A stretch of DNA of 57,437 nucleotides from Synechococcus sp. (GTDB lineage: Bacteria > Cyanobacteriota > Cyanobacteriia > Thermostichales > PCC-7336): NCBI GenBank assembly GCA_051439605.1, contig JBFRWN010000021.1, forward strand, positions 1-57,437. The letters are read 5' to 3'. Below the pieces are notes generated by a model. That model saw nothing but the letters and a program-made list of their open reading frames with translations, searched no databases and was not told the DNA's origin. Of this stretch, positions 1,460 through 18,710 are shown piece after piece; the stretch's first letter is position 1, and each line of letters starts with the position of its first letter. The position numbers and the translations under genes are program-made.

Positions 1460-2596
1460 GTGATGCTAGCTAAACCAATGGTGCCGTTGCTTGTCGGGTT
1501 TGCGTTATCCGGACCGCTGTCCTGTCAGTTTGCGGCGGCTGAAATGCGTGCATTTTCCCCTCTGCTCGAAGAATACGGTTTGGAGGAGAACAATGAATCG
1601 CCTCGGGACAATTACAGTACAGCCAGGCTCTCCCCAGGTGATCGCATCCAACTGACGATCCCGGCAGATACCGAAGAACTGTTCTCAGGCCCCTACGAAG
1701 TCCAGCAGGATGGCACCATCCCCATCCCCTTTATCGGAGCTTTTTCCGTGCAGGGATTGACCCTGGATGAAATTGAAACCCTGCTAGTGCGCACCTTGGA
1801 AAACCAAGAATTGTTTCTGCCCGGCGTTGCCGCCTCCGTGCAAATTTTGAACTATGGTTCGGCAATCGTGCATATTTCAGGCGCGGTGTTCGATCCGGGG
1901 ACCACTCAAGTGAATCAATTGCCATTAGAACTGTTGGCCGGGGGGCAAGGGTCAGCGGCCAGTATCCCCGGCGATGCCCCCCGTCGATTGCTAACAGACG
2001 CCATCCGGGCAGCGGGAGGGATTACCCCCGTTGCAGACCTGAGTAGAGTCCAGCTGGAACGGAATCATCGTACTGAAACCTTTGATTTAAGAGGGGTATT
2101 CGAGGGCTCTGCCTTCGAAAATCCGCTGATTTTAAGTGGCGATCGCATTGTGGTGCCCAGACAGGAATTTGAAGCCGACTATGCCCGTCCTTCAGTCCTG
2201 ACCCCCCCCACTATCCAGGTCTTTTTGTCCTCCACCACTGTTCCCGCCACCAGTAACAGTCAAGCGAACGAACAGGGCATCATAGAGCTGCCCTATGGCG
2301 CCCATTTCAGCCAGGTGCTCGGTCCTGCTAACTGTTTGGGGGGAACCTCTGCCACCAATGCCCGCCGCAGTGCAGTGTTAATTCGCACCGAGCGCAAAAC
2401 GGGTCAGGTGTTTGCCCTCGATCGCAAGGTGGAGGATTTGGTGCGGGATTCCGAGGCGAATGACGAAAACCCATTTTTGATGCCAGGGGATCTAGTGGCC
2501 TGCTACGACTCGGCAGTTACAAACTTTAGAGACGTCTTTCGGATTGTGGGAGAAACGATTTTGCCGATCGGAGTGTTTTGGGGGCTGGTAAGGTGA
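1460..2596 (+). CDS. Polysaccharide export protein (Wza/OPX family, SLBB domains)
   Basis: LSPGDRIQLTI, YEVQQDGTIPIPFIGAFSVQGLT (Poly_export) and LTDAIRAAGG...ADLSRVQLER, LSGDRIVVP (SLBB). Confidence 0.9.
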   Translation: MMLAKPMVPLLVGFALSGPLSCQFAAAEMRAFSPLLEEYGLEENNESPRDNYSTARLSPGDRIQLTIPADTEELFSGPYEVQQDGTIPIPFIGAFSVQGLTLDEIETLLVRTLENQELFLPGVAASVQILNYGSAIVHISGAVFDPGTTQVNQLPLELLAGGQGSAASIPGDAPRRLLTDAIRAAGGITPVADLSRVQLERNHRTETFDLRGVFEGSAFENPLILSGDRIVVPRQEFEADYARPSVLTPPTIQVFLSSTTVPATSNSQANEQGIIELPYGAHFSQVLGPANCLGGTSATNARRSAVLIRTERKTGQVFALDRKVEDLVRDSEANDENPFLMPGDLVACYDSAVTNFRDVFRIVGETILPIGVFWGLVR

Positions 2597-4017
2597 CGCG
2601 TCGGTGGCCCCTATTTGGGATAGCGCTCCTTCTCGCTAATGGATGGGTGTGGGCGATCGCCATTCTCTATTTACTGTCCGAGCCCACCTATTCCAGCGGT
2701 CTAACGATTTCGTTGCCCCCCTCCTCACCGCGCTCGGACATTAGCGTGGGGGATATCGGACAGGCCCAACTGGATACGGGAAATTCCTTTGGGCTAGTCA
2801 CCCTCGACCCGCGCGAAAGCTACAAGCTGCTGTCGATGTCCAGCCCCGTCCTGGAGTCCGTAGCATCGCAGTTGGATGTCCCTGTCGCAACACTGGAAAA
2901 ACGCGTTGATGCGATCCTCCCCCCCAATACCAGCCTGATTCAGTTTGAGGTGAAAGCCTCCAGTGCCGAAGAGGCTCGGTCAGGGGCGGAAGCCTTTTAC
3001 CGAGGTTTTCTGGATCGCGTCAATCAATTACGCCAAGAAGAGATTGCCCTGCGCAACCAAATTGCTCGAGAATTTCTAGCGAAAAAGATTGAAGACCTCA
3101 GTCGGGCAGAGGCAGAGCTGGCGAATTTTCGGGCAGAGTCGGGTCTGGTTTCCCTCGATCAGCTGGATCGCATCGCCGACACCTTAGAAGCGTTGCGCAG
3201 CCAGCGAGCGGAGATTGCTGCTCGCATGGCCAGCGAGCGCAGGCAGCAGGAGCAACTGTCCGCCACATTGGGATTGTCTCCCGCAGAGGCTAATCGCGTG
3301 TTTTTGTTGCAGGGCGATCGCGGTTTTCAAGCCAATATGGCGGCCTTTGGGGAAGCGCAATCGGCATTGGCAGAGCTGATGGCAACGCGAGGGAACAGCC
3401 ACCCTAGCGTTGTAGCCCAGCGATTGGAATCGAACAGCACCAGGAAGGCGCTCGAACAAACCATCGGTCAGCCAGTGAGCGATCGCGCCCTGCAATTACT
3501 GTCTTTGCCGCAGGACGGTACAGAGCGGGAACAGCTGTTGTCGACGCTGATTGCTGTGGATGCCAGCGCTCGGGGACTGGCAGCCCAGCTGGAAGAGTTG
3601 GACGGGCAAATTACTGCATTAATTCAGCGGCAAGCAGATCTCAACCGCAAAGGGGAACAATTGGTGGAGCTGGAGCAGCGGGCTCAAACGCTGCGGGTGG
3701 TGCTGTCGTCCACCACCGGAGCACTGGCCATCCGGGAAACGGATGTCACCACTACCTATCCCCTGGTGCAACTGGTAATTCCTCCTGTTCTGCCAGAAGA
3801 GCCCATCAGTCCCAAAAAGAGTTATGCCCTTGTGGGGGCCATCTTCGGGTCGGCCTTTGTCACCGTGGCGTTAGCGATTGCCTTTAGGCAACGACGGCGA
3901 CTGCAGTCTTTCATGACCAATGCATTGCAAGCAGAATTGCCCCCCGAGGATGGCCAGCCATTACACCCATTAGAACAGTCCCAGCTAGCACAGTCCCCCC
4001 TCGATAAGTCTGCATGA
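2593..4017 (+). CDS. Polysaccharide co-polymerase (GumC/Wzc N-terminal type), no tyrosine-kinase domain
   Basis: N-terminal TM, long coiled coil, then PVLPEEPISPKK followed by a TM. GTG at 2593 overlaps the wza stop (GTGA). No Walker A or Tyr cluster. Confidence 0.85.
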   Translation: MTRRWPLFGIALLLANGWVWAIAILYLLSEPTYSSGLTISLPPSSPRSDISVGDIGQAQLDTGNSFGLVTLDPRESYKLLSMSSPVLESVASQLDVPVATLEKRVDAILPPNTSLIQFEVKASSAEEARSGAEAFYRGFLDRVNQLRQEEIALRNQIAREFLAKKIEDLSRAEAELANFRAESGLVSLDQLDRIADTLEALRSQRAEIAARMASERRQQEQLSATLGLSPAEANRVFLLQGDRGFQANMAAFGEAQSALAELMATRGNSHPSVVAQRLESNSTRKALEQTIGQPVSDRALQLLSLPQDGTEREQLLSTLIAVDASARGLAAQLEELDGQITALIQRQADLNRKGEQLVELEQRAQTLRVVLSSTTGALAIRETDVTTTYPLVQLVIPPVLPEEPISPKKSYALVGAIFGSAFVTVALAIAFRQRRRLQSFMTNALQAELPPEDGQPLHPLEQSQLAQSPLDKSA

Positions 4018-5393
4018 GACGTGCCATCCTGACTCAAATCTTTGCCCCTGGGGATGTTCGACCCGGCAATGTGTTGGAGGCAGCTGTCTTTTGGCCGCTT
4101 GCGTTGCTGTATCCCATTTGGTTTGTGGGGGGTCTGTATTTAGTAGGTTCTGTCTTGGGCTGGTTGTTGGGCATCATCCTGGTACTGCGTATCTTGCGAT
4201 CGGGAATCAATCCCATTCCCCTCACCCTGTGGGTGTGGATTGCGGGGGTGCTGACGATCGCCCTAACTCTGTTTGTGGCCCACAACGGGTACGGACGGGG
4301 AACCGGAACGCTGATCAAAAGTATGGTGAGCTGGGGTCGCACCTGGGCTTTGTTGCCGCTCTATTTGCTGGCGGGATGTTTGCCCATTCGACCGCAGATT
4401 GTGTACAGGGGGGCAGCGATTGTTTGTGCCTGGACGCTAGCTCTGCTCCCTGCCTTTATGGCCCTCAAGGCCATTCACTTTCGCGAGGTGTGGTTTACGT
4501 CTCCCCTCAGGGTGATTGGCGGGCCCAATGCCCTCAGTTTTTTCCAAATCGGCGTTTACAGCAGCGAAGACCATGGAGCTGGGGAGCTGCGATGGAAGCT
4601 ATTTGCCCCGTGGTCGCCGGCCTTGGGATTGATTGGGGTTTGTTTTTTTATGTTGGCCCTTCAGGAAAAGGGGGGGTGGCGGTGGATCGGGTTGGCTGGC
4701 TCGGTGGCAATGGTGTTGCTGTCGGGGTCGCGGCTGTCTCTAGTTTGTTTACCCTTTGTTCTGGTGGTTTCTTGGTGCTTGCAGAACCTGAAACGACCGA
4801 TGTTCTTGGCCGGGGTAGGGGTAGCAAGCCTGCTAGGGGGGGTAGGGGCGGATGCAATTCTGTCTTTTTTGTCGCAGTTTTATCGAGATTTCAAGGCACG
4901 TCGGGCGGGGAGTTCGCAGGTGCGAGAGGATTTGCAGAAAATCGCTCTGTTTCGCTGGCAAGAGGCCCCCATTTGGGGACACGGACAGGTGGAAGGGGGG
5001 CCAATTACGGTCGCTTACATGCCCATTGGTTCCCACCACACTTGGTTTGGGGTGTTATTCGTACACGGGGTGGTGGGACTGTTTGCCCTCTTAGTCCCGA
5101 TGGTGCTGACCTTAGGAGAGCTTGTTCTCAAGGCCAATTCCAGTCCCGTGGCGATGACGGGTTTTCGGTTGATGCTGACCCTGTGCCTGTTTTCGTTTGG
5201 GGAGAATTTAGAAGCGATCGCTTATTTTTACTGGCCGGTGTTGATGGCGATCGGCATGGCTTTGGCATGCAAAACGCCCGCACGGGGAGCGATCGGCAAT
5301 GGATCTCGAGGCTCCAGATCCACCAAAGTTCAAGAGCTGCAAGAGGGAAAGCAACTCGTTAGACAGTCAGACAGTATAGTCATGAGCGGTTGA
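4014..5393 (+). CDS. O-antigen ligase / Wzy polymerase family protein
   Basis: Multi-TM; LLSGSR, PIWGHG and IGSHHTWFGVLFVHG motifs; ATGA overlap with the upstream gene. Confidence 0.85.
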   Translation: MRRAILTQIFAPGDVRPGNVLEAAVFWPLALLYPIWFVGGLYLVGSVLGWLLGIILVLRILRSGINPIPLTLWVWIAGVLTIALTLFVAHNGYGRGTGTLIKSMVSWGRTWALLPLYLLAGCLPIRPQIVYRGAAIVCAWTLALLPAFMALKAIHFREVWFTSPLRVIGGPNALSFFQIGVYSSEDHGAGELRWKLFAPWSPALGLIGVCFFMLALQEKGGWRWIGLAGSVAMVLLSGSRLSLVCLPFVLVVSWCLQNLKRPMFLAGVGVASLLGGVGADAILSFLSQFYRDFKARRAGSSQVREDLQKIALFRWQEAPIWGHGQVEGGPITVAYMPIGSHHTWFGVLFVHGVVGLFALLVPMVLTLGELVLKANSSPVAMTGFRLMLTLCLFSFGENLEAIAYFYWPVLMAIGMALACKTPARGAIGNGSRGSRSTKVQELQEGKQLVRQSDSIVMSG

Positions 5394-5446
5394 AAATAGC
5401 TTGAACCCCGATAGAAAATCTGTCACTGTCAGTGCAGCTGCCCGCC

Positions 5447-5830
5447 ATGAACCTACTCTCTGCTATGGGAAAGATGATTCTGATCGTCGATGACGACGAC
5501 ATCTCGACATTGCTCGTCAAAAGTTTCTTAGAGCGTCAGGGGTATATGGCGATCTCAGCTAACTGTGGAGAAAAGGCTTTGACCATCTGTGACAACATCG
5601 TTCCTGACCTCATCTTGATGGATGCGATGATGCCAGAGATGGATGGATTCGAATGCACTCAACGGCTCAAGCAACGATTTCCAGATAGGGACTTGCGCAT
5701 TTTGATGGTTAGCGGGCTGGAGGATGCTGACACCCAAGATAAGGTATCCGAAGTTGGAGCATGTGGGCATATCCAAAAACCCATTAATTGGACCGTTTTG
5801 CAGCAGGCGGTATCGCAGCAACTCGCATGA
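5447..5830 (+). CDS. Single-domain CheY-like response regulator
   Basis: ILIVDDD, PDLILMDAMMPEMDG, IQKP. Start could be 5432, 5447 or slightly downstream. Confidence 0.9.
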   Translation: MNLLSAMGKMILIVDDDDISTLLVKSFLERQGYMAISANCGEKALTICDNIVPDLILMDAMMPEMDGFECTQRLKQRFPDRDLRILMVSGLEDADTQDKVSEVGACGHIQKPINWTVLQQAVSQQLA

Positions 5831-5862
5831 TGCTGAAGTGCTGGCAAATTCGTGCTTGCTGT

Positions 5863-8541
5863 CTAATGGGTCTGCAACCAATCCTGAAAGTGGCTGGCGA
5901 CAACTTCTGACTCAGTCCTGACTTGCTGGACGAGATCTTCTAGGTGTCCTTCCCCAGCCTTCGCTGTCATTTCCAACTCCTTGCAGAGCGCCTGCAGCGG
6001 TAGAGCCCCTAACGAGCCGCTGACGGATTTCAAGGAATGTGCCGATCTCGCTAACCGGTCTAAATCGTTTTCTAGCAAAGCCGCCTGCATTTCCCTCGGG
6101 TATCGGTCTCGTCCGTCGAGGAAACTGTGAATCGCCTGTTGGAGTGCTGGGGAGCGATCGCCCCCTAAAGCCGTAACCAATTCAGCAAACGATTCTGGAT
6201 GTACCGGACTGTGGGAGAGTGTTGGGTTTTGCTTGCCAGCCGGTTGATGTTTACTCGGGAATTGTTGCTGACAGTTAGAGGAGGGTTGGGAGGTTGGCTC
6301 TGGAGAATGGGGCTGTCCGCTGTCAGGGGGAAGGGATCGAGGTAGATGGCGTTTGAGGGCTAGATCTAGATCTTGGGGGCTTACAGGTTTGGGGAGATAT
6401 CCATCCATCCCCGCCTCGAAGCAGATGGTTTTTTCATCCCCGAAGGCATTTGCGGTCAGCGCAACGATCTTGGGCCTAGCCGAGCGTTGATAGCGCTGGC
6501 AAATCTGACGAGTGGCCTCAATACCGTCCATTTGAGGCATTTGAATATCCATTAGCACCAAATCGTAATGAGTGCGTTCCAGTTTTTCCAAAACACCCAG
6601 ACCATTGTCAGCCACATCCACCTCGTAGTTCAAAATGCTCAACATTTCCTGCAAGATAATTTGATTGGCCTCTACATCTTCTGCCAGCAAAATTCGCGGT
6701 TTCCTGCTAGCAGAGAATGCCACAGGACCGGCATCGGTACTTGGGGGTCTGTCCTGCCGAGTAAGAGCTGCCGAACAAGCCTCCACTAACGTCGAGGGTA
6801 AATAAGGTTTGATAACCGACTGGATGCGTTTATCCTGTGCTAAAGAATCATCAAAATATTGGCAGTGTTTGATGCTGGCGATCGCCACAATGGGGAGGGA
6901 TACTTCTAGGTCTAAAAAGGAACGAATGTAGAGAATGGGATCGACCGCATTAATGGGAATATCCACAATTGCTAAATCGCTATCGCGATCGACACCCACC
7001 CCACTATCATTGGCCTGGATGGTGGCCACGCTATGGGTGACTTCGTTCAGTTCCCGAACGATCTGGTTGCCGTAATGCTGACTGGCACTAGCGGCAACGA
7101 TCTTGCGCCCCCGCAAAGCACTCGCAAAAGCTAGCTCCCGATCGATGTCCTGTTGGCTTAAGTGCGATCGCCGCAGTCGCACCGTCACGTTAAAAGTTGA
7201 ACCCCGATCGAGTTCGCTTTCCACCCATATGTCCCCTCCCATGAGGTTGCAGAGGCGCTTGCAGATGGCAAGGCCGAGGCCCACTCCACCATGTTTGCGT
7301 GAAAAGGTTGCGTCCGCTTGGCTAAAGGTTTCAAAAATCTTGTCGCGATCGCCAGCATCAATTCCAATTCCGGTATCGATCACCGAAAAACACAGCTGCT
7401 CGACGTCCTCACTCAAATGAAATTCTCGCTGTTTAAAGCGAGAGAGATTGGGCCGGTGGTTGTAGAGATTGACCTTAATTTGAATCGATCCAGAGTTAGT
7501 GAACTTAATGGCATTGCCTAACAGGTTGAGAAGAATTTGCTTGAGATATTTGCAATCTCCCAAATACTTGCGAGATACCCTGGATGAAACGAAGTAACTG
7601 ATTTCAATCCCTTTAATGGCAGCTTGGGTGCTAATCGAATCTAAGGAGGATTTCAATAATTGATAAATATCGATGTCATCTTCTTGTAGCGCAAATGATT
7701 TGGAATCCAGTTTTGAGAAGGTCAGAATCGAGTCCACAATCTGCAAGAGGGACTCCCCACTATTGCGGATGATATCCAGGTAACCCGATGCCTTGAGGGT
7801 TAAGTCCGACTGTTGAGCCAGTAGGTGAGCTGCTCCGATCGTCGAGTTAAGCGGAGTGCGAATTTCGTGACTCATCGTCGACAGAAATTCACTTTTGGCT
7901 CGGTTAGCGCTCTCGGCGTCGGATTTTGCCTTCAGAATAAACAGGATGTAAAGGGCAAAGACTGCAATGGAAATTAGCAGATAGGTTGCCATCATATCTG
8001 CCGCTCTATTCATCTTTTGATTGTGTTTGTCAAACAGAGCGTGTTCGACGGTTGCCAACTCTCGTGCAAATAGCTTGACATCTGGAATGGTTGCGGAAAG
8101 CCGAGCTCGAATTTCTGGGTATTGGCTGTAATCCCCTTCTAAAACGCTCTCAATCTTAGGCTCGAGGTATTGTAACAGTGTCGAGAATTCATTGAGTAGT
8201 TGTTCGCCGTCTTCAGTGCTGGCCAATCTAGCTCGAGGTACTCCAGAATCGAAAACGGCAATTCTGCTCCAGAGAACATCCAGGCGATCGTAAACATCCC
8301 ATTTTGATGTGGTGTCGCTGTCGGCTGCGTACAAATCTAACGCTGACAGAAATCGATGTAGCTCTAACTCCAGCTGAACTCCCGACCAGGTTTGGGGCTC
8401 GTGCAAGTACTCCTGTCGCAATACTTTGGAATCGCGAACAAAGTTAATGGTAAAAATGCTGCCAAACAAGGCAAATCCCGCCACGCTGAACCCGAGCAGC
8501 TGGTTATATTTCAATGAGATGCGTTTGAATGGCGATTTCAT
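5863..8541 (-). CDS. Hybrid sensor histidine kinase: TM-periplasmic sensor-TM-HisKA-HATPase-degenerate REC-REC-Hpt
   Basis: H-box FLSTMSHEIRTPLN, N-box NLLGNAIKFT, DTGIG, GGVGLGL; receiver ILLAED...DLVLMDIQMP; Hpt AHSLKSVSGSLGA. Two TMs flank a sensor of about 150 aa. Confidence 0.95.
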   Translation of the reverse strand: MKSPFKRISLKYNQLLGFSVAGFALFGSIFTINFVRDSKVLRQEYLHEPQTWSGVQLELELHRFLSALDLYAADSDTTSKWDVYDRLDVLWSRIAVFDSGVPRARLASTEDGEQLLNEFSTLLQYLEPKIESVLEGDYSQYPEIRARLSATIPDVKLFARELATVEHALFDKHNQKMNRAADMMATYLLISIAVFALYILFILKAKSDAESANRAKSEFLSTMSHEIRTPLNSTIGAAHLLAQQSDLTLKASGYLDIIRNSGESLLQIVDSILTFSKLDSKSFALQEDDIDIYQLLKSSLDSISTQAAIKGIEISYFVSSRVSRKYLGDCKYLKQILLNLLGNAIKFTNSGSIQIKVNLYNHRPNLSRFKQREFHLSEDVEQLCFSVIDTGIGIDAGDRDKIFETFSQADATFSRKHGGVGLGLAICKRLCNLMGGDIWVESELDRGSTFNVTVRLRRSHLSQQDIDRELAFASALRGRKIVAASASQHYGNQIVRELNEVTHSVATIQANDSGVGVDRDSDLAIVDIPINAVDPILYIRSFLDLEVSLPIVAIASIKHCQYFDDSLAQDKRIQSVIKPYLPSTLVEACSAALTRQDRPPSTDAGPVAFSASRKPRILLAEDVEANQIILQEMLSILNYEVDVADNGLGVLEKLERTHYDLVLMDIQMPQMDGIEATRQICQRYQRSARPKIVALTANAFGDEKTICFEAGMDGYLPKPVSPQDLDLALKRHLPRSLPPDSGQPHSPEPTSQPSSNCQQQFPSKHQPAGKQNPTLSHSPVHPESFAELVTALGGDRSPALQQAIHSFLDGRDRYPREMQAALLENDLDRLARSAHSLKSVSGSLGALPLQALCKELEMTAKAGEGHLEDLVQQVRTESEVVASHFQDWLQTH

Positions 8542-8671
8542 ATCCGAGAGCGGAACGCAGTTTGCTCGTGGCTAGGCAACACTGCCTATCAATTGGTGCC
8601 GAGAACACTGTTAAATTGCCCACAATCTGATGGGACACCGAGGAATTCTCCTCGGTGTTGGCAATAGCTGC

Positions 8672-9244
8672 CTACTTTATCTCGATTGCCTTGACCTGCC
8701 AAATCCAGCGATCGTTCATTTCAGAGGTGTTCAACTCGGGATGCTCGTCGCGGGGGTACACAATCCAGATGGGGCCGCGATCGCGAGGGGTGAGCGCGAC
8801 ACCATCCTCTGTGAGTGCCAGCAAGACATCGTAGTCTTCAAAGTCAGACACCGGAATTTCAACCAGGTAATCGTTCAACGCGATGACGGACAGTGTTTCC
8901 CCTTCTGCACCCAAATACTCCAGCAAATCCCGTCCCAATACCCCTTCGAATTCTGTCACTCCGTCGGTCCAATCGGTGGAGGTGGCGATGCCGGACGTGC
9001 CGATGGATTCCAGTAATTCGCGATCGAAGATGGCTAGCTCGCCGTTATTAGTATTTGCTATTTCTCCCGAAACCGTCAGAATTGGCCGTCCTGAGGGAAC
9101 GGGTAAATCGTCCGCTAAGGCGGAGGGGGCAACCAGTAGGGTGGCCGTGGCGATCGCCGCTGAGCCCAATCCCGTGAATAAGGCCACGGATTGCGAACTG
9201 TTGAATTTTGAAACGAATCCCATTGCGGTGGACGTTGACTTCAT
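8672..9244 (-). CDS. Secreted sulfite-oxidase-fold (molybdopterin-binding-like) protein, PruR/COG3915-like pterin-binding candidate
   Basis: Sec-type signal ending SALA; motifs ILTVSGEI, TSTDWT, FEGVLGRDLL, IALNDY, RDRGPIWIVYP, RWIWQVKAIEI; no Cys in the mature part. Start 9244 or 9223. Confidence 0.8.
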   Translation of the reverse strand: MKSTSTAMGFVSKFNSSQSVALFTGLGSAAIATATLLVAPSALADDLPVPSGRPILTVSGEIANTNNGELAIFDRELLESIGTSGIATSTDWTDGVTEFEGVLGRDLLEYLGAEGETLSVIALNDYLVEIPVSDFEDYDVLLALTEDGVALTPRDRGPIWIVYPRDEHPELNTSEMNDRWIWQVKAIEIK

Positions 9245-9415
9245 GATTGATTTCCCAGAGTATTCCCAGGCTCTCGAATGACAAGCGATTGGATGGGCCT
9301 GGTGCAGTGCGAGTCTACTGGGCAATGGTGAACAAATCGGGAAATTGTCGGTCAAGCTCTGGATGATGTCCCGTTATAGCTCTTGACATTTCAGCGAGGA
9401 CTGATGGATCTACGG

Positions 9416-9943
9416 TCAGTCACGGATTGGGACAGCTGAAATGTCCTCAGCGACTTGACGGTCGCTATCAAAGGGGAATTGCTGCTGTAACATTTGGCAG
9501 ATGCGATTGGCTGAGTTGCTGATGGAGGGGATGGCAGCAGGCAGTATCGGTCGCGTTAAGTGGGAAATGAGCTCAATGGGGGATCGGGCGATCGCGCAGC
9601 CCAAATCCTCTAGCGCCGTTGCCATTTCCACTTGGTGGTCGTCCACATGCTCTCCAAACCGAGCGCTCCGAGGAACCAAGATAAACGGCACCCGCAGTTG
9701 ACTCAACAGCAGGTACGACCCCTCTCCGCAGTGGGATATGACGATGCGAGCAGATTGCACCAACTGTTGAAATCGATCTTCGGGCAAAATTGCATGTACC
9801 TCTGCCCCTGTTGGCGTCACTGTACAGCTGCCAGCCTGCACTACTACTTCTTCGTGCAAAATGCCGTATTCGATCGCTGCTTCGGTCCATTGCATGAGCC
9901 GATTGAAGGGAAATTGTTCGGTACCGACGGTAACTAATATCAT
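9416..9943 (-). CDS. PssE/Cps14G-like glycosyltransferase (GT28 C-terminal-like)
   Basis: MILVTVGTEQFPFNRL, ISHCGEGS, PR...GEHVDDHQ. Confidence 0.9.
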   Translation of the reverse strand: MILVTVGTEQFPFNRLMQWTEAAIEYGILHEEVVVQAGSCTVTPTGAEVHAILPEDRFQQLVQSARIVISHCGEGSYLLLSQLRVPFILVPRSARFGEHVDDHQVEMATALEDLGCAIARSPIELISHLTRPILPAAIPSISNSANRICQMLQQQFPFDSDRQVAEDISAVPIRD

Positions 9944-10033
9944 GACGAAATCCTTGATAATTCTGGGTGACGTGAACTAACAGATCGGGAAATAGCTCTT
10001 GGGATCGCTATTGAGACGAACCCTATATGGGGT

Positions 10034-10537
10034 CTAGTTTGACCCAGACTGAATGAGCTGGGCTTTGGGATGGTTCTGGAGCAGCTGCGGCCAATGCACG
10101 TAAATTGCATCCAGACAAGGTCGAAGCAGCTTGGCCGATAAACTGAGGGTTTGTACTCGGGTAATGGATTCCACAAATACAGCTTTTGCCCCCAACACTT
10201 TTCCGAGGGCTAAGAAGGGAACCGCGACTCCCGCTCCTGTGGTCAACACCAGATCGGGCCGCTCTGCGAGTAAAACAGTGAGGGCCAACCCCAGATTTCT
10301 GAGCAGGTTAACGATATTGCGATTGGTTGGCCCCCATGCCCAATACACGGATTCGCTGGCTAAAGCGGCTTCTGTTGTTTCCGATCGGAAGGTAACCCAA
10401 ACCCGATCGCAATGGCTCCAGTAGCCCTCTAGCCTTTGCAATGCGCGGAAGTGTCCGCCGGTGGAACTGACAAGCAGCACCTTTTGGATTGCGGGTTGGG
10501 CCAAGTTGGAATTGAGGCGGTTGACCGGTGTAACCAC
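10034..10537 (-). CDS. PssD/Cps14F (Alg14-like) glycosyltransferase subunit
   Basis: LLVSSTGGHF, ERPDLVLTTGAGVAVPF, FVESITR. Confidence 0.9.
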   Translation of the reverse strand: MVTPVNRLNSNLAQPAIQKVLLVSSTGGHFRALQRLEGYWSHCDRVWVTFRSETTEAALASESVYWAWGPTNRNIVNLLRNLGLALTVLLAERPDLVLTTGAGVAVPFLALGKVLGAKAVFVESITRVQTLSLSAKLLRPCLDAIYVHWPQLLQNHPKAQLIQSGSN

Positions 10538-10581
10538 AATGATGTTCCTCTGAACTACTACTGTGGTTTCTACAGATAAAA

Positions 10582-10598
10582 AGTGAAATAGAAAGGAA
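10582..10598 (-). promoter_or_regulatory. Candidate OmpR-type direct-repeat operator upstream of pssD
   Basis: Minus strand TTCCTT-TCTAT-TTCACT; the same pattern recurs upstream of other EPS genes. Confidence 0.5.
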
Positions 10599-10861
10599 CT
10601 TCAATTTTTGTTGAGTCCCTCAACGGCACGTTTGAATTCCAATTCACATAACAAGCGTTCGATCTCTGACTTCGTCTCGAGAATGTCTTGCCCAGTCGAT
10701 GAATGCGATCTGAACCGAAATGGGAAGAAATGAACTAGGGATAACCCATCCTGGACAGGCTTGGATGCTGGCTCGATGCAGCAGTTTGGTGATGCTTTGC
10801 ATATGAACGAACCGTTTTTCAACCGAGCTGCACACCTTCAGAAAGCGGTAGGGGAGTGGCA

Positions 10862-12784
10862 ATGAAAATATTGCTGATTGAAGACGACGAACAACTGGCA
10901 GAATTGGTCTGCTTGAATCTCAAGTCTCAAAATTATGCAGTGGAGCTGGCGACTGACGGCCAGCTAGGGTTGGAGCTAGCCGAGGCTGCCAATCCAGATG
11001 CGATCGTTATCGATGGATATTTGCCCCGCTTAGATGGCATGGAACTGTGCAAGCGGCTGCGGGCCCATGGTAATGGTGTCCCTATCTTGATGCTGACCTC
11101 CCGTAACGAGGAAGCGGACAAAATCAAAGGGTTAGATGCCGGTGCCGATGATTATCTAACCAAGCCCTTTAGTTTGAACGAGCTATCTGCTCGCTTGCGC
11201 GCCCTCCTCAGGCGAGGGGGGAATTCTGTAGGAACTCCAATCGTGAAATGGGGACCGCTCAGTTTGACACCCGCCACCTGCGAAGTGCTGTACGGCGATC
11301 GCCTCGTGTCGCTGCGACCCAAAGAGTATGCGCTGCTCGAGCTGTTCATGCGCAACCCAAACCAGCTCTTTAGCCGCGATAAAATCCTCGATCGCCTCTG
11401 GACATTCGACGATGCCCCCAATGAAGAAACCGTCAAAGCTCACATCAAAGGACTGCGCCAACATCTCAAACAGGCTGGCGCTCCTGCAAAGCTGATCGAG
11501 TCCATCTACGGTATGGGCTACCGGCTCAACCCCCAGTACAAGCAGGTTGAAGCGGGTGTCCCCAATCATTCTGTACCCTCGGCGGCTGCAGCGACCATCA
11601 CACCAACCCTGACCGATCCAGTTCAGTCCCCCCCAACGGTGACTCGTTCGGGACCCGTAGCACAAGCACCCGTGGGAATTCCTGTATGGGAACAAATGAA
11701 ACCTAAAATGCTGGAGCGAGTGGCCGCTGTTGCGACTGCAGTTCAGGCGATGGAAGCGGGGACACCGCAGGAATCTCTCGATCGAGCGGGATGCCGGGAG
11801 GCGCATAAACTGGCAGGAATTTTGGGCACCCTGGGCTTCGATCGCGGCACTGCCTTAGCCCGTCAAATTGAAGTACAACTGAAAGACCCGAATCCCTTAC
11901 CGATCCGATTGAGGCAGCTGCTGGACGATCTGGAACGGGAGCTGGAGAAAGAGCCCAAACCAGAGACAATGGCGGAGCTGATGGCCTTGACCCAAGGGGG
12001 AGAGACTCAACCTGCCCCTGCCGATCTCGCTCAACCTCTAGAGCTATTGCTGGTGGGAGCCAACATCGAGATTTCAACGTTGCTCGTTCGTGAGGGGAAA
12101 GACCGCCGAGTACGATGTACGCACGTGTTAGACGCAGACAGTGCTCGTCGGCAAATCGAGCTCAGCACGCCACATGTGTTGGCGATCGCGGCGGAGGGGA
12201 TGTCTGCAACGTTTCAGCTGTTAGCTCAAATGGCTGCACAAGTAGCGACCATCCCCACTTTGGTAGTGACTGAAGCCATTGATTTATCCAATCGGGTTGC
12301 GTTAGCCAGACTGGGGGTAAAGCGGGTGCTGGAAACCCCTGCCGATAACGCCAGCCTATTTAGTGCAATCGACACCATTGGACAGCAGAACCATTCCCGG
12401 AATCCCAGAATTTTGGCGGTGGATGACGATCCAGAATTTACAGATATTTTGCGGGGAATACTTCCACCCTCGGGGTTTGATGTGACGGCGGTTGAAAATG
12501 CCGAGCTGGCTTGGGAGGAACTAGCCAGTCTCAACCCCGATCTGATTTTGTTGGATGTAGAAATGCCTGCGATCGATGGCATCGAGTTGTGTCAGGCACT
12601 CCGCAGTGACGAGCGATATTGGGGGACTCCCGTGTTAATTTTGGCATCTGTCCAAAATACCGCTCGGGTCCAGCAGGCGTTTATCGCGGGGGCAGATGGG
12701 TTTGTTAAGAAACCGGTGATTGCTACAGAGTTGATTGCGCAGATTTCAACTCACTTGGAGCGACGAACGTTCGGTCGAGCTTAA
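10862..12784 (+). CDS. RcaC-like multidomain response regulator (REC-OmpR wHTH-Hpt-degenerate REC-REC)
   Basis: MKILLIEDD...DYLTKPF; wHTH KEYALLELF...VKAHIKGLR...IYGMGY; Hpt AHKLAGILGTLG; C-terminal REC ILAVDDD...DLILLDVEMP. Confidence 0.92.
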   Translation: MKILLIEDDEQLAELVCLNLKSQNYAVELATDGQLGLELAEAANPDAIVIDGYLPRLDGMELCKRLRAHGNGVPILMLTSRNEEADKIKGLDAGADDYLTKPFSLNELSARLRALLRRGGNSVGTPIVKWGPLSLTPATCEVLYGDRLVSLRPKEYALLELFMRNPNQLFSRDKILDRLWTFDDAPNEETVKAHIKGLRQHLKQAGAPAKLIESIYGMGYRLNPQYKQVEAGVPNHSVPSAAAATITPTLTDPVQSPPTVTRSGPVAQAPVGIPVWEQMKPKMLERVAAVATAVQAMEAGTPQESLDRAGCREAHKLAGILGTLGFDRGTALARQIEVQLKDPNPLPIRLRQLLDDLERELEKEPKPETMAELMALTQGGETQPAPADLAQPLELLLVGANIEISTLLVREGKDRRVRCTHVLDADSARRQIELSTPHVLAIAAEGMSATFQLLAQMAAQVATIPTLVVTEAIDLSNRVALARLGVKRVLETPADNASLFSAIDTIGQQNHSRNPRILAVDDDPEFTDILRGILPPSGFDVTAVENAELAWEELASLNPDLILLDVEMPAIDGIELCQALRSDERYWGTPVLILASVQNTARVQQAFIAGADGFVKKPVIATELIAQISTHLERRTFGRA

Positions 12785-13087: not shown

Positions 13088-14074
13088 TTAGACTGCACCA
13101 GCTCGCCGACTCAAGATATGGGTAACGGTCTCCCAAATGAGATCGAAATCGTGGGTCAGACTCCATTGGTCCTGGTAGGAGCGATCCAAGGCCACGACTT
13201 CACCAAAGGTTTCGATTAACGAACGTCCCCGAACTTGCCATTCTCCTGTTAAGCCCGCCTTCACGTTTAATCGCTGCCAGTCGGCGATACCGTATTGGTC
13301 CACTTCATCAGCCAGGGGAGGACGCGTACCTACTAAACTCATACTGCCGATTAAGACACACCAAAATTGAGGCAGTTCGTCCAAACTAGTGCCTCGCAAA
13401 AATCGGCCTACGCGGGTAATCCGAGAATCTTGCTTGTTTTTGAAAAACGCTCCTTCAATCTCATTCTTAACATCCTTTTTACGGGCTTCTGCATCGCGCA
13501 CCATCGAACGAAATTTCCAGATCCGGATGGGTTGTCCTAAGTATCCATAGCGAATCTGGCTAAATAAAATGGGACCCGGACTATCGAGTTTGATCAGGAG
13601 TGCGATCGGGATAAACAGCACTGCTGTAATCAGTAGACCGATCGAAGCTCCGCAAATATCAACGATTCGCTTTGCCAGATTGGTAGTCGAGGGATGGGCA
13701 ACAGGCAGGGGCGATCGCCTGTTAGAGGAGCAATCATTGTGCAAAGATTGCATGCGCTCATCAATGTGAATAAATCGGTTACACCCAGTTATGGAGAGGG
13801 CATTAGCAACTCGTTCGCAAGGGCTCCATGCCACGAGTTGAATACTGTTGGCTTTCACCTGCTTACCCAGTGACGTAAGGGCACCGATTCCACAACTATC
13901 GATAAAGTCAGTGCGGCTAAAGTCGAGGATAAGGCGTGAACCTGGCTCGGCTGAATCAAGCTCAGTCGTACACTGCTGGATAAAGTCAGATGAGGTTCGA
14001 TCGTCAAAAGACTGCGGTACTTGGACAAGATGAAGAGCCAAACTATTTGCTGACTGTTGAAGAGTGTGAGTCAC
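13088..14074 (-). CDS. STAS (anti-anti-sigma) domain fused to a priming sugar transferase (Bac_transf)
   Basis: LILDFSRTDFIDSCGIGAL (STAS); KRIVDI, DSPGPILF, WKFRSM, RITRVGRFLR.TSLDELPQF, MSLVGTRP. Confidence 0.92.
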   Translation of the reverse strand: MTHTLQQSANSLALHLVQVPQSFDDRTSSDFIQQCTTELDSAEPGSRLILDFSRTDFIDSCGIGALTSLGKQVKANSIQLVAWSPCERVANALSITGCNRFIHIDERMQSLHNDCSSNRRSPLPVAHPSTTNLAKRIVDICGASIGLLITAVLFIPIALLIKLDSPGPILFSQIRYGYLGQPIRIWKFRSMVRDAEARKKDVKNEIEGAFFKNKQDSRITRVGRFLRGTSLDELPQFWCVLIGSMSLVGTRPPLADEVDQYGIADWQRLNVKAGLTGEWQVRGRSLIETFGEVVALDRSYQDQWSLTHDFDLIWETVTHILSRRAGAV

Positions 14075-14137
14075 GACCGTCGTTTCCTCCCGAGCAAAAT
14101 ATAGAATTTACTTACGGAAATAACGATAGAAGTCAAA

Positions 14138-14199
14138 GGTGAATTAGTAGGGAATATCTCAAAGAATCATCTGCCAATCTAAAGTGAATAAAAAGGGAG
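14138..14199 (-). promoter_or_regulatory. Two candidate direct-repeat operators upstream of the STAS-sugar transferase gene
   Basis: Minus strand TTCCCT-ACTAA-TTCACC (14138-14154) and CTCCCT-TTTTA-TTCACT (14183-14199), 45 bp apart. Confidence 0.5.
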
Positions 14200-14342
14200 T
14201 ATCTATCAGCTATTTGCTGAGAATAAGATCTGCCGATTGGCACAGTTTTTAATATAAAAAAACGACATCCGTACTTATTGACAGGATGCCGAATGGATAG
14301 GAGGCTTGCGGACTGATAATTCTAGGCAGGGATACTTGACTG

Positions 14343-15461
14343 CTAATACTGTACTGTCATAACTGGCTGCAGTTCCTGTTGAGCTCGTTCGGCATGGACC
14401 GTTGCCTGCTGCTGCTCTCGTTGAATTTGCCAAGATTGTGTCAAGGTTCGGATAGAAAAAGCTACTTTCAACAACGGCTTGAAAAAGCTCTGCGGCAAGA
14501 ATCGTAATAGGTAAGCGGCTAAAACCGTCAACACTGTTCCACGGGGCTCTGCCAAAATTCCCAAACTGCTTGTCAAAGCTCGATTTGCCAGGTCGAATGC
14601 TGTTTTACCATCCCCAATCATCACGGCTTTTTGAGCCAATGCACGATATTGATATCCAGTGGCTAATCTCTCCCATTTTGCGATTAGGTCTGGGGCATAG
14701 GTGGCGGTCTTTTTCAGCAGCTCTAGCCAGCTATCGAATTGTCGATAATAACTGGCTGAGAGGCCTGCTGCATTCACCCGGTAGCAAGTTAGGGCCTCCG
14801 GTAGCCCTTCAAATTTCCAGTTTGTCAGGCAAGCAATCCGCAACCACAAATCGATATCCTCCATGCGGCGAAACTGCTCGTCAAAATAGTTGCCCTGACA
14901 CTTCACCTCTTCAAGCACCTCCCGACGCACAACTGGCGTAGATCCGTTACTAATTGGGTTGCGGCACAGTAGGCGTTTGGCATCTACATATCCGGTAAAA
15001 GACATTAAGTAAGCGGCGGAATTCCCTCCAAACAATTGAGAACGGGAAAAGGATACTCCTATCTCAGGCTGGCTGTCTAAATGAGCCATGTGTTTTTCTA
15101 ACTTTTGAGGGGTCCATACATCGTCCCCATCCAAAAAGGCGATATAGTTTCCCGTGGCGTGGCGGATTCCCGCGTTTCGGGCTCCAGCTAAGCCGCGATT
15201 GTCCTGTTCGACAATGTGGATGCGGCGATCGCTAAATTGTTGGCATATCGCTAAACTATTATCTGGCGACCCATCGATAACCACAATAATCTCAAAGTCT
15301 TGAAAGGTTTGATCGAGCACGGACTGAATCGTGCTAGCAATAAAGTCCTCGACGTTATAGACAGGAATAATGACAGATACTTTCGGAAAGGTTTGAGAGA
15401 CATCCACGTGAGGAAGGGCAAAAGTACTTGCCGAGCGATCGAGGATTTGAGATGTTGTCAT
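14343..15461 (-). CDS. Glycosyltransferase family 2
   Basis: VSVIIPVYNVE, IDGSPD, GLAGARNAG, AFLDGDD, EDIDLWLR. ATG at 15461 follows AAGGAG; the upstream extension in the ORF track is AT-rich and probably non-coding. Confidence 0.92.
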   Translation of the reverse strand: MTTSQILDRSASTFALPHVDVSQTFPKVSVIIPVYNVEDFIASTIQSVLDQTFQDFEIIVVIDGSPDNSLAICQQFSDRRIHIVEQDNRGLAGARNAGIRHATGNYIAFLDGDDVWTPQKLEKHMAHLDSQPEIGVSFSRSQLFGGNSAAYLMSFTGYVDAKRLLCRNPISNGSTPVVRREVLEEVKCQGNYFDEQFRRMEDIDLWLRIACLTNWKFEGLPEALTCYRVNAAGLSASYYRQFDSWLELLKKTATYAPDLIAKWERLATGYQYRALAQKAVMIGDGKTAFDLANRALTSSLGILAEPRGTVLTVLAAYLLRFLPQSFFKPLLKVAFSIRTLTQSWQIQREQQQATVHAERAQQELQPVMTVQY

Positions 15462-15519
15462 TGTTTTCTCCTTTGCAAGAGCAGTGAATCTGCTTGTAAA
15501 AAGAAAGGTATGAGCAAAA

Positions 15520-15580
15520 GGTAAATAATTGGAGAAAAGTCCCAAAAGTGACTGAGCAAAGAAAGTAAAAAAATAAGGAA
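15520..15580 (-). promoter_or_regulatory. Two candidate direct-repeat operators upstream of the GT2 gene
   Basis: Minus strand TTCTCC-AATTA-TTTACC (15520-15536) and TTCCTT-ATTTT-TTTACT (15564-15580), 44 bp apart. Confidence 0.45.
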
Positions 15581-16112
15581 ACTTTCTATATTCTTTGATG
15601 GTTGAGAAAATAATTTGGATAGGATGGATAAAAACTTGAATTCTATTCCTATACACCGAATTCAGAGTGAATCAGAGGATAGTTGGTTGATTATTAGATA
15701 AGGCCAATTGACTGTTTTGTATCTAATATCTTTTAGATCTTATTTGGTAAAATATTCTGAATCTTTTTTCTGTTGTCTCTCTGACTGAATTGCCAAAAAA
15801 TCAATACTAGGACGGATGGCTATCTTCAAAAATATTTATAAAAACTCTGTTTCAAGACTCTTTTGTGCGGTAGTCATAACTGTCTGGGTATGTTATGGCG
15901 CTTAAATTCCTGAGCTACTCATCAAAGAAAGATCGGCTAAATCGAACAACTCATTTCTATTTAAAATCGATATAGATTTTTGAACCAACCCTTGATATCG
16001 ATCTGCTTTAGATGTCTGCTCTTCTGGCTTTTCAAAATTCAAAAAATATCCCTATCCAAGGATGCGAGGTAGTCTCTTGATGCGTGGCAGATCTCGATGT
16101 TGTGACCTCCCA

Positions 16113-17339
16113 CTAAGCCGCAATTTCCTTGTTAGATTTCCAGATATATCGACCCACTCCGTAGGTGAATACAGGCAGCACAATCCAGTGCACCAGAACA
16201 ACGGCTGCGGCCACGCCCACTAGACCAAAGGGCATACCGGCCAGAAGCGCGAGGGCAAAACACAGGGTGAATGCAAGGTTGTAGCGAAAATCTGTACCGG
16301 CTCGATTTTTGGTCCACAGCACTTGGGAGGCTGCTTGGGCAAAGGGGCGCGGAATGGCAGAAAGACAAATCAAGATAGCGAGGGGAACGGCAGCGGTCCA
16401 CTGGGATCCAAACACAAAGGGGATGTAATAGGGGGCCGCTACGGTTTGCAGGAGTACCAAAGGAATGATGATGGCAGCGATCGTTTTCAAAGATCGGAAA
16501 AATCGGGTGCGCAGCTCGCCGGGCTCCTCGCAGAAATGGGGATAGAGGGATTGAGAGAGGGCGTTAATGGCACTGAGTGAGAGTCCCAATCCAGCATTGA
16601 AGGCGAAATAGTACATCCCTAGCAGATCCACCCCTAGGAAGGGGCCCACCAGTAGATAATCCAGATTCTGTCTCAGTGTCTTGAGCATTTCCACCCCCAG
16701 CACATGGCGACCAAACCGAGCAATCTCTTGCCAGTCCTGCAAAGAGAATTGTTTCGGGGCTTGCCAAGGGTGGTTGACGAAATTGATCGCCACCCAAATC
16801 GGTGCCACAAGAAGTTTGGGGGCCACAATTGCCCACATCCCCCATCCCATCACTGCGAACAGAACGGTCAAGAGGGCATTGGCAATGACTTGCAACGAAA
16901 CCGACAGGGCGCTGACTTCTAGGCGGTTTTCCCGTTGGATCAAGGCAGACTTGACTTGCGCGAATGGTAGTAGCGGATAAATCAAGGCGAGGGTGCAGAT
17001 GGGTAAAATGAGCTGGCTGTCTCGATACACCCAGCCCGCGATAAACGCGGCCCCACACTGCAAAACAAGGAGGATGCCTGCCACAATCCAGGTGAGCCAA
17101 TAGGCGGTGTGGCTCAGGCGGGCGACATCTTTAGTCGGTGCTTGGATGAGTTTGGCGGCAATGCCGTTGCGGGTGAGCACATCCACAAAATCATTGACTG
17201 TTAAGACGATGGCGGCCAGTCCGTAATCGTGAGGACTGAGCAGGCGCCCGAGGACAACGACGACCAGCAATCGAGAAATGCGGATGACAACCTCGGTGAT
17301 ACCCATCCAACCCACATTTTGTAGAAATTTGCCTGACAT
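16113..17339 (-). CDS. Wzx flippase (polysaccharide biosynthesis protein)
   Basis: LGRLLSPHDYG, NLDYLLVG..LG...LGMYYFAF; about 12 TMs; likely start MSGKF at 17339. Confidence 0.9.
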   Translation of the reverse strand: MSGKFLQNVGWMGITEVVIRISRLLVVVVLGRLLSPHDYGLAAIVLTVNDFVDVLTRNGIAAKLIQAPTKDVARLSHTAYWLTWIVAGILLVLQCGAAFIAGWVYRDSQLILPICTLALIYPLLPFAQVKSALIQRENRLEVSALSVSLQVIANALLTVLFAVMGWGMWAIVAPKLLVAPIWVAINFVNHPWQAPKQFSLQDWQEIARFGRHVLGVEMLKTLRQNLDYLLVGPFLGVDLLGMYYFAFNAGLGLSLSAINALSQSLYPHFCEEPGELRTRFFRSLKTIAAIIIPLVLLQTVAAPYYIPFVFGSQWTAAVPLAILICLSAIPRPFAQAASQVLWTKNRAGTDFRYNLAFTLCFALALLAGMPFGLVGVAAAVVLVHWIVLPVFTYGVGRYIWKSNKEIAA

Positions 17340-17378
17340 GCCTTTTCCCTTAGTGCTAATCGGACGGTAGGGGGACAA

Positions 17379-17395
17379 AGTGAAACCAGCAGGAA
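17379..17395 (-). promoter_or_regulatory. Candidate direct-repeat operator upstream of wzx
   Basis: Minus strand TTCCTG-CTGGT-TTCACT, about 40 bp before the ATG. Confidence 0.5.
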
Positions 17396-17627
17396 AAGAG
17401 GTATAAATTTTGTCTCCAGCTGTAGCTGCAGCTGTTATGGCGATGCAATCCGCCTGCGAAGCGGAACGGCTGTATGGACTTGACGATCGCCTTCGTTTCT
17501 CCGGTTTTTCACAATCGCTCAATATAAAACATTTGCGATCTCGGCAAGGAAGGACAGCCATATCTTTGGCTAGTCAGGTGGCTGGAGCGCTGAGATTGTC
17601 TAGGAATTCGCAACGTTATGGAGATGA

Positions 17628-18710
17628 GTGGTGAGTAGAACAACGGTTTTGCATCTTGTGGGCGATCGCAAGATGGGCGGAATTGCAAGCACTCTCAAGC
17701 TTCTTCAGGACTCTCACCTGGCCGAGACCCATAACTTTCTCTTTCTCGAAACCGATGGCAACCCACAAGATGCGCTACGGATTGCCAAAACACTGAAAGG
17801 CATCGACATCGTTGCCATTCATTTTGCAGTGCGCACCGCTAATTTAGCGACACTGGTATGGATTCAACTGCTGTCAAAACTGCTAAGTTTCAAAATCATC
17901 CTGATCGAACATCACTACTCCCAACGGTTTCAGGAGATTGCTGCCACAAACCCCAACCGACTGCAGCGAGCATTGGCGATCGCCGGTCAGCTCGTCGATC
18001 GGGTTATCGCTGTTTCTCCCCCACAGCAACAGTGGTTATCTGGTTTTATTCCCGCATCTAAGCTAGTGACGATCGCCTCTTGCTCGTGCCTGCAAACTTT
18101 TTGGAATATACCGGAACGTCCCCCACATCAGGGGCCCCTCAGAGTGGTGTCTTACGGTCGTCATTCCTTACCAGCAAAAGGCTTTGATATTTTGATCGAG
18201 GCTGCAAAGCTCCTGCAAGATTTACCCATCCAAATAGCGATCGGTGGTCAGGGGCCAGACACCCAGCAATTGCGTCACTTGGCTGCAGCCACAAACAACG
18301 TGAAAATTGTGGCTCCAATCCCCGATGTGCCTTGTTTTTTAGACGCAGCAGATGTAGTTGTAATTCCCTCTCGTTGGGAACCGTGGGGGCTCACCTGCAC
18401 CGAAGCAAAGGCTGCAGGCAGGCCCGTCATTGTTAGTTGCGTGGATGGATTGATCGATCGGGTACAAGATTGCGGTCTTGCCGTTCCACCGGATAGTCCC
18501 AAGGAATTGGCTGCGGCTTTGAGGCGGCTGTCCTCGGATAGTAACCGCCAACAGTTGCGGGAGTGGGGGCGGGCCGCCAGAGATTCGGTTCGGTCAGCTG
18601 AAAGCAATTACATCTCTGCTTGGGCAGAATTGTTGAACTCTCAAACAGCAAAACGCTGCCGATACAATACAAAGTTGAACGGATTACTATCCAGTGATAG
18701 TAGGAGCTGA
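17628..18710 (+). CDS. Glycosyltransferase family 4
   Basis: KGFDILIEA, DVVVIPSRWEPWGLTCTEAKAAGRPVI. Confidence 0.92.
   Translation: MVSRTTVLHLVGDRKMGGIASTLKLLQDSHLAETHNFLFLETDGNPQDALRIAKTLKGIDIVAIHFAVRTANLATLVWIQLLSKLLSFKIILIEHHYSQRFQEIAATNPNRLQRALAIAGQLVDRVIAVSPPQQQWLSGFIPASKLVTIASCSCLQTFWNIPERPPHQGPLRVVSYGRHSLPAKGFDILIEAAKLLQDLPIQIAIGGQGPDTQQLRHLAAATNNVKIVAPIPDVPCFLDAADVVVIPSRWEPWGLTCTEAKAAGRPVIVSCVDGLIDRVQDCGLAVPPDSPKELAAALRRLSSDSNRQQLREWGRAARDSVRSAESNYISAWAELLNSQTAKRCRYNTKLNGLLSSDSRS

Follow-up and report, generated by a model that had tools for sequence, protein, structure and literature searches.

A PruR-like gene and a DTB-type hybrid histidine kinase gene within an extracellular polysaccharide locus of a cyanobacterial genome

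The window analysed here is the whole stretch of 57,437 nucleotides of contig JBFRWN010000021.1 from Synechococcus sp. Its minus strand carries a small gene homologous to pruR and, 130 bp 3′ of it on the same strand, a gene encoding a hybrid histidine kinase (Table 1). The flanks of this pair are a Wzx/Wzy extracellular polysaccharide (EPS) locus. The combination of PruR with a DcpA-type sensor and a TorS/BaeS-like kinase is the PruR-DTB class of Greenwich et al. 2024 (PMC11194511), repeated in a 2026 review (PMC13259868). Judged from its sequence, the window pair is a real and intact member of this class, and its host phylum is new in the literature searched. The membership of both genes in their families (PruR and the DcpA sensor) is practically certain from the sequences, in which every known functional residue is kept.

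The pruR homolog, for which the ATG at 9223 is an alternative start, presents in its translation the motifs ALNDY (residues 122–126), RDRGP (at 154) and WIWQ (at 180). A Sec signal was predicted by eye and hydropathy at residues 1–44, with a hydrophobic peak at 20–38 followed by A42-L43-A44 and an ALA-D cleavage site, leaving a predicted mature protein of 146 aa. In a phmmer search against the PDB, the product matched four PruR structures (7kos, E 1.2e-36; 7rkb, 1e-34; 7kp2, 1.6e-25; 7kom, 2e-16) and, apart from them, nothing under E 0.04. The alignment places W70, N102, Y104 and W160 of Agrobacterium tumefaciens PruR on W92, N124, Y126 and W182 of the window protein, so that the position of the molybdenum (Mo)-ligand Cys is occupied by Trp (W92). 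The roles of these pocket residues are those given for A. tumefaciens in PMC11194511, where PruR proteins are described by an N-terminal secretion signal, about 170 aa and a Trp in place of the Mo-ligating Cys, W70 being usually within a PW motif. All motifs are also kept in PruR relatives at 98, 77 and 71% identity. The initial annotation had placed here a Sec-signal protein of the sulfite-oxidase molybdopterin-binding fold and a PruR-like receptor, and the motifs, coordinates, homology and pocket residues bear it out.

The N, G1 and G2 boxes of the kinase HATPase domain are intact, as are H225, D665 and H835, and a receiver-like region at about residues 470–600 has no Pfam match. The second transmembrane segment (TM2) is strong (hydropathy 2.53 at 185–203) and TM1 is moderate (1.71 at 14–33), and DVLWSR is found at residues 88–93. 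In the published class, the sensor is formed by two TM segments around a periplasmic domain of 138–150 aa with the W-x7-E motif (PMC11194511). TorS is the best NCBIfam match of the kinase, below the cut-off; the sensor domain has no Pfam family and no solved homolog by sequence. Of 80 genome loci, 76 yielded a PruR ORF and 56 a W-x7-E partner. The profile of these 56 proteobacterial partners, built with the window excluded, found the window kinase at E 6e-22 among 17,073 genome frames (next best, 0.066), with 81 bits versus a maximum of 7.8 bits in 1,000 shuffles. A second profile, A2 (the window plus 49 partners, 50 rows, with W, E and R invariant), matched the periplasmic domain of a 643-aa GGDEF-EAL DcpA ortholog with 98.3% probability (E 1.9e-14), placing W52 on W40 and E60 on E48; direct BLASTP gave 21% over 87 aa (E 0.003). 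AlphaFold models the periplasmic domain as a bundle of four helices (pLDDT 93), as was also predicted for DcpA, and the best fold matches of the model are the four-helix sensors McpS (Z 14.4, rmsd 2.4, 112 aligned), QseE, McpN and TorS, in a range common for helical bundles. Matches in the ESM Atlas were unnamed, mostly Pseudomonadota clusters at 0.95–0.96. Full-length relatives of the kinase, at 99, 85 and 69% over its periplasmic region, keep all motifs. The earlier description of a two-TM hybrid kinase directly downstream, with W52-SGVQLEL-E60 at nt 8388–8362 and DVLWSR, proved exact, and the DcpA-type W-x7-E domain that it suggested agrees with the profile match and the four-helix model.

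A chimera carrying a cyanobacterial transmitter was also considered for the kinase and rejected. The kinase core has a median identity of 42% with cyanobacterial kinases (n=35) versus 35% with DTB kinases (n=34), and in a quick tree it fell apart from the DTB rows. The chimera is not supported, because the cyanobacterial set was picked by similarity and the tree that forced the core together with 25 DTB rows had the higher likelihood (p-AU, the approximately unbiased test, 0.79); 10 of the 74 rows of the core tree were dropped as long-branch or identical.

Table 1. Features of the window around the pruR–kinase pair, and loci of the divergent (type II) pairs in other genomes
Feature	Position	Strand	Remarks
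wza (OPX), wzc-like co-polymerase, wzy-like polymerase	1460..5393	+	
Single-domain receiver (D at residue 64)	5432..5830	+	Candidate phospho-acceptor
DTB-type hybrid histidine kinase, 892 aa, intact	5863..8541	−	Domain searches, profile, motifs; TM1, DcpA-type four-helix periplasmic domain (W52, E60), TM2, HisKA (H225), HATPase, REC (D665), Hpt (H835)
W-x7-E motif WSGVQLELE (W52-E60)	8362..8388	−	Aligned to W40/E48 of a DcpA ortholog
pruR homolog, 190 aa	8672..9244	−	Homology to solved PruR and kept pocket residues; ATG at 9244
Dispersed MITE-like (miniature inverted-repeat transposable element) repeat, about 94 bp	9375..9468		Between pssE and pruR, overlapping the pssE 3′ end
pssE- and pssD-like glycosyltransferase halves	9416..10537	−	Directly upstream of pruR
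OmpR-type response regulator, REC-wHTH-Hpt-(linker)-REC	10856..12784	+	Candidate transcriptional output
STAS-WcaJ-like priming transferase, GT2, wzx flippase (minus), GT4 (plus)	13088..18710		
Type II loci	L108:7513-10784 (G038), L109:8874-11049 (G334), L229, L245-L254		

The survey of PMC11194511 covered all public bacterial assemblies, iterated at 60% identity, and reported pairs only in Proteobacteria; among about 5,500 pairs, the PruR-DTB share is 23% in its Results and about 29% in its Discussion, often near response-regulator genes. Its Dataset S1 (class to genus) had 0 matches for cyanobacterial taxa (e.g. Synechococc, Nostoc, Oscillator, Chroococc, Leptolyngbya, Pseudanabaena, Thermostich) versus 53 for Ruegeria, in line with the initial statement that these pairs were described from Proteobacteria. 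No paper on a cyanobacterial PruR was found in the literature searched, which lacks most subscription journals. The window pair shares with PruR-DTB systems, such as that of Ruegeria pomeroyi, the gene order, the PruR residues, the W-x7-E sensor, the HisKA-HATPase-REC arrangement and the nearby response regulators (PMC11194511, PMC13259868). It differs from the systems as described there by its cyanobacterial host, its place inside a Wzx/Wzy EPS locus, the lack of PAS, and an extra receiver-like region and Hpt; in addition, most homologous pairs abut or overlap, unlike the window genes with their 130-bp gap. PruR-DcpA of A. tumefaciens and VpbA-CdgA of Vibrio cholerae (PMC12422006) present the same receptor and sensor domain, with polysaccharide and biofilm as output, but they act through turnover of cyclic di-GMP (c-di-GMP), while the window kinase has a phosphorelay. 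XssS/XssR/XssQ of the Synechocystis synechan system likewise place a kinase and a response regulator within a cyanobacterial Wzx/Wzy EPS cluster, a functional analogy only; no pterin receptor is described for them in the passages of PMC8205485 consulted. The logic of TorT-TorS is also the same, as a ligand-binding periplasmic protein docks on the helical sensor of an unorthodox kinase, but TorT is a solute-binding protein unrelated to PruR and its ligand is trimethylamine N-oxide (TMAO).

For PruR and the sensor, a complex prediction run without alignments was weakly supportive, at 0.55 versus 0.01 for the best control, with a partner pLDDT of at least 77 and agreement among runs in at least 58% of contacts. 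Of 78 solved complexes, 51 attain the mark for such predictions, as do 2 of 108 mismatches. The window pair, however, falls in the range up to 0.60, where only 5 of the 78 solved complexes but all 4 mismatches that pass are found, and for a family whose complex is already known, passing indicates likeness only. The host genome has two FolE genes and both single- and dual-domain PTPS, the latter being said, in the title of a reference cited by PMC3546692, to serve biopterin synthesis. Pteridine glycosides are abundant in cyanobacteria and their function is unknown (PMC3546692). The VpbA-CdgA complex of V. cholerae was solved with pterins, according to a meeting report (PMC12422006). The GT4 at 17628–18710 had no pteridine glycosyltransferase among its 51 PDB matches, PgtA/BGluT not having been searched genome-wide. 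Following the Agrobacterium model, the window PruR would bind a pterin, and self-made and neighbour-made pterins are both possible sources.

The pair is rare in cyanobacteria. With the window PruR as query, 27 of 401 genomes of the phylum matched; three of these matches are PruR-sized (G000, G038, G334) and the other 24 are SUOX-fold frames of 338–381 aa. The PruR profile matched 1 of 30 genomes of the order and 0 of the 6 others of the family, and the W-x7-E sensor profile matched 1 of the 401 genomes, so the survey that the initial annotation had in mind shows that the pair is not common. The relatives P0004, P0005, P0124 and P0125 gave no match above 58% in the genome or metagenome contig scans. 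The named close PruR homologs belong to Pseudomonadota (43–58%), except for two rows from metagenome-assembled genomes (Anaerolineae, Actinomycetota), and homologs occur on many plasmids (217 records at E 1e-20). Among these records, 62 of the 217 are diatom-associated Pseudosulfitobacter plasmids with pruR-kinase pairs, a possible exchange route among phototroph-associated marine bacteria. A recent transfer was rejected, the third-position GC content and the codon use being ordinary. Nesting within Alphaproteobacteria was also rejected: it is found in a quick tree only and is absent from the careful 46-row tree.

The contig belongs to a cyanobacterium, given the six Photo_RC matches of the host genome (four near full length) and the nine flanking EPS and regulator genes with orthologs at 58–83% in the same-genus genome G403. 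The host is probably uncultured, and DNA of the window is present in marine sediment metagenomes of three studies; none of the data sets listed as containing it is of RNA. Contigs of other runs bridge wzy, receiver and kinase (X2, 5289–6053, from the same study as the possible source of the window DNA), receiver and kinase (X4, from another study, 5731–6096), and kinase and pruR (X2, 8059–8915). None of the other-run contigs listed connects pruR with unique pssE sequence; that of X5 stops at 9469, the edge of the repeat.

This 94-bp repeat has TATAG...CTAT-type ends and an internal inverted pair (fold z −2.15), with 47 matches of at least 80 nt in G000 and copies in G401 and G403. Rfam returned nothing above the gathering score in 5300–11000, the repeat included, and the promoter (6 vs 5.0) and terminator (7 vs 5.5) scans gave chance-level counts. 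The OmpR-type regulator has orthologs in G403 (61%) and G405 (52%). The priming glycosyltransferase at 13088–14074 has an N-terminal STAS domain, conserved in G405 (57%), which could be a regulatory input to EPS initiation. An LrgA/LrgB (CidA/CidB-like) pair lies directly after the EPS locus (18758–19850) and is found in G401 and G402 too; the DNA of these two genomes had no match to the EPS export genes. On the same contig and unlinked to pruR, a GGDEF-EAL protein is encoded at 37223–39442, by which the host has c-di-GMP turnover enzymes, and an ISKra4-family transposase fragment, below the family cut-off, is at 55765–56469.

A second group, here called type II, comprises divergent lipoprotein-type PruR-like genes with a four-helix partner in 13 cyanobacterial genomes of five families, and no report of such pairs was found in the literature searched. 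Profile searches detected short PruR-like proteins in 11 of 400 genomes of the class, 3 of 8 of the order of G038 and 3 of 11 of the family of G334; the class search gave 18 matches, 7 of them long SUOX-fold frames. In type II PruR-like proteins, D-[PL]-F replaces PW; of 12 proteins, 9 have a lipobox as judged by regular expression, 10 have ALNDY and 11 have the pocket Trp. The membrane partner is present in 12 of the 13 genomes, in one behind an insertion sequence (IS), and in G570 the contig ends; its output is GGDEF in eight and a kinase in three, one being cut off. In the partner, the Glu and the SR motif are conserved and the Trp gives way to H (8), R (3) or T (1); a profile of the partners aligns with A2 at 93.9% (E 1.6e-7). 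The nearest Atlas clusters of type II are mostly from Chloroflexota and Actinomycetota. The window pair is not type II, with 34% median identity. In G689 (L248:6159-7475), an IS transposase lies between the pruR-like gene of the type II pair and the GGDEF partner gene, and the two abut in the sister genome G649. The long SUOX frames (L084-L107, L238-L244; 338–381 aa), which have a PruR-like fold and occur in 24 of 401 genomes, are possibly a third pterin-binding group; in the six segments inspected, a Cys-bearing Mo hairpin was not obvious, and motifs of the forms N or D-x-Y and F-W-A/V-F-Y are present.

Several observations weigh against a pterin-driven, transferred system acting on the EPS locus, and they are considered here with the alternatives that they touch. 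The PW motif of the family reads DW in the window PruR (D before W92). An identity of the small protein as a subunit of a molybdoenzyme like MsrP or sulfite oxidase would fit a Pfam Oxidored_molyb match, below the cut-off (E 5.7e-5), and a cytochrome b561 gene 7.5 kb off (611–1195), but the 190-aa product has no Cys and no RR among its first 30 residues, Trp stands at the Mo-ligand position, the mature size is 146 aa, and the PDB matches are the PruR structures, a true sulfite oxidase appearing only at E 0.0046 with a profile. Twin-arginine export is a feature of MsrP; the SUOX/MsrP (YedY) molybdoenzymes have a Mo-coordinating Cys and, in MsrP, this export, and the window PruR has neither. By its sequence, a molybdoenzyme identity appears already contradicted and deserves almost no credence, as the initial annotation anticipated in noting the missing Cys and twin-Arg signal, both verified in the translation. 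With the receptor identity retained, the pair might sense the periplasmic redox state or another small heterocycle, with pterin as a mere proxy or not as the ligand. Redox-proxy sensing was raised, and the true ligand left open, in PMC11194511 and PMC13259868, and the side-chain sugars of cyanobacterial pterins (PMC3546692) may not suit a monapterin-tuned pocket. One strict motif scan of the genome also found no PruA/FolM-type TGxxxRxG reductase. Against this alternative, which we hold to be unlikely, the ring-contacting residues are all kept. V. cholerae has PruR pairs without a PruA-type reductase (PMC13259868), and a substituted pterin tail is possible, since the pterin side chain is disordered in the solved PruR complexes (PMC11194511). 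By analogy with these systems, signalling of the PruR-kinase pair probably depends on pterin.

Regarding origin, both genes are of proteobacterial type, and a transfer from Proteobacteria is likely, based on sequence type and patchiness; an old transfer is the simplest reading, and the trees fix no donor. The pair could instead be what is left of an ancient cyanobacterial system that most lineages have lost, with the divergent PruR-like pairs of other cyanobacteria as its sister group. The careful 46-row tree puts the window clade sister to, and outside, the named proteobacterial rows (96/92), grouping all cyanobacterial PruR-like proteins together is compatible with the data (p-AU 0.19), and codon usage resembles that of the host at large (56th and 37th percentile). 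However, the window PruR has 43–57% identity with 76 homologs of the proteobacterial set versus 29–39% with 12 proteins of type II, the sensor obtains 81 bits with the proteobacterial profile versus 2.6 bits with that of type II, PruR occurs in one genome among the 30 of the order, and the quick 96-row tree places the window PruR clade among Alphaproteobacteria, its deeper branches being unstarred; a remnant is quite improbable. The horizontal transfer for which the initial annotation proposed a phylogeny is favoured by sequence type and patchiness, but a robust nesting in Proteobacteria was not obtained. As to output, the pair may be a working PruR-DTB sensor that is a passenger in a variable EPS slot and signals to regulators elsewhere (motility, redox, envelope stress), unrelated to the EPS genes, which we regard as almost an even possibility. 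The same EPS locus occurs in G403 and G405 with different cargo between wzy and pssE, where genes for repeat-rich secreted proteins begin within the slot (in G403 the slot spans a contig break), and pruR was not found in these genomes, which are 85% and 92% complete, so the regulators of the locus occur without the window kinase. The nine EPS probes matched only 1/80, 2/80 and 0/12 other PruR loci (3/172), many of them short (65, 24 and 6 reach at least 8 kb), and the neighbourhood is therefore not a family trait. A dispersed repeat marks the pssE-pruR junction, the genome has, by a rough motif count, 15 kinases with a similar H-box and 7 Hpt-like motifs, and the 2024 authors consider that DTB systems probably have outputs other than the c-di-GMP/adhesin one (PMC11194511). 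On the other side, pssD, pssE, pruR and the kinase gene share a single strand, separated by 90, 171 and 130 bp, and the single receiver adjoins the kinase in the window but the OmpR-type regulator in G403. Some 6 kb ahead of wza, G403 encodes a kinase with the transmitter layout of the window kinase (34% across 674 aa), a situation compatible with one input having replaced another. The receiver, whose best G403 match (47–48%) sits in the orthologous EPS locus, and the OmpR-type regulator are resident EPS-locus genes in kin, both present in the locus of G403, and no other kinase was found among the scanned EPS-locus ORFs. In Synechocystis, XssS/XssR encoded in the synechan cluster control that cluster (PMC8205485). 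From gene position in this one locus, EPS control is a tentative candidate for the kinase output, less likely than not. The initial annotation had described a pterin receptor rewired to a phosphorelay that drives EPS genes in a cyanobacterium; the presence of the pair in a cyanobacterial EPS locus holds, the rewiring is not new, since the PruR-DTB class was already published, and the EPS drive is suggested by position.

In the kin, the slot between wzy and the remaining EPS locus (L110:14264-16098, L112:4326-11178) holds large glycine/aspartate-repeat (RTX-like) proteins, one of which has, by eye, an N-terminal glycoside-hydrolase-16-like domain.

We propose, as a reading that is somewhat favoured, a working PruR-DTB system, probably an old acquisition from a source of proteobacterial type, that would pass a pterin signal through a relay, perhaps to regulators of the EPS locus. 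PruR would be exported by Sec, and the pterin ring would be stacked between Y126 and W182 with N124 hydrogen-bonding, as in the Agrobacterium model. Pterin-loaded PruR would dock on the periplasmic four-helix bundle of the kinase and shift its kinase/phosphatase balance, and phosphate would pass from H225 to D665, H835 and a response regulator, the nearest candidate acceptors being the single receiver and the OmpR-type regulator. The amount or redox state of pterin would thereby be tied to polysaccharide output.

The roles of pterins in cyanobacteria are incompletely understood according to the 2026 review (PMC13259868). A complete PruR-DTB pair brings the system into a phylum with copious pterin production and offers a concrete receptor for tests with pteridine glycosides, and its position among EPS genes with two response regulators gives named candidate outputs for a kinase class with unknown targets. 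Type II pairs, some of them in complete or near-complete genomes (G038, G443 and G649), may be a better experimental entry. A wider and rather speculative view is that cyanobacteria use pterins or pteridine glycosides, or the pterins of neighbours, as extracellular signals through PruR receptors of two kinds, the window pair wired to EPS-locus regulators and, in at least five other families, type II, whose output is a kinase or a diguanylate cyclase. If true, slime and mat formation would be under pterin signalling beyond Proteobacteria.

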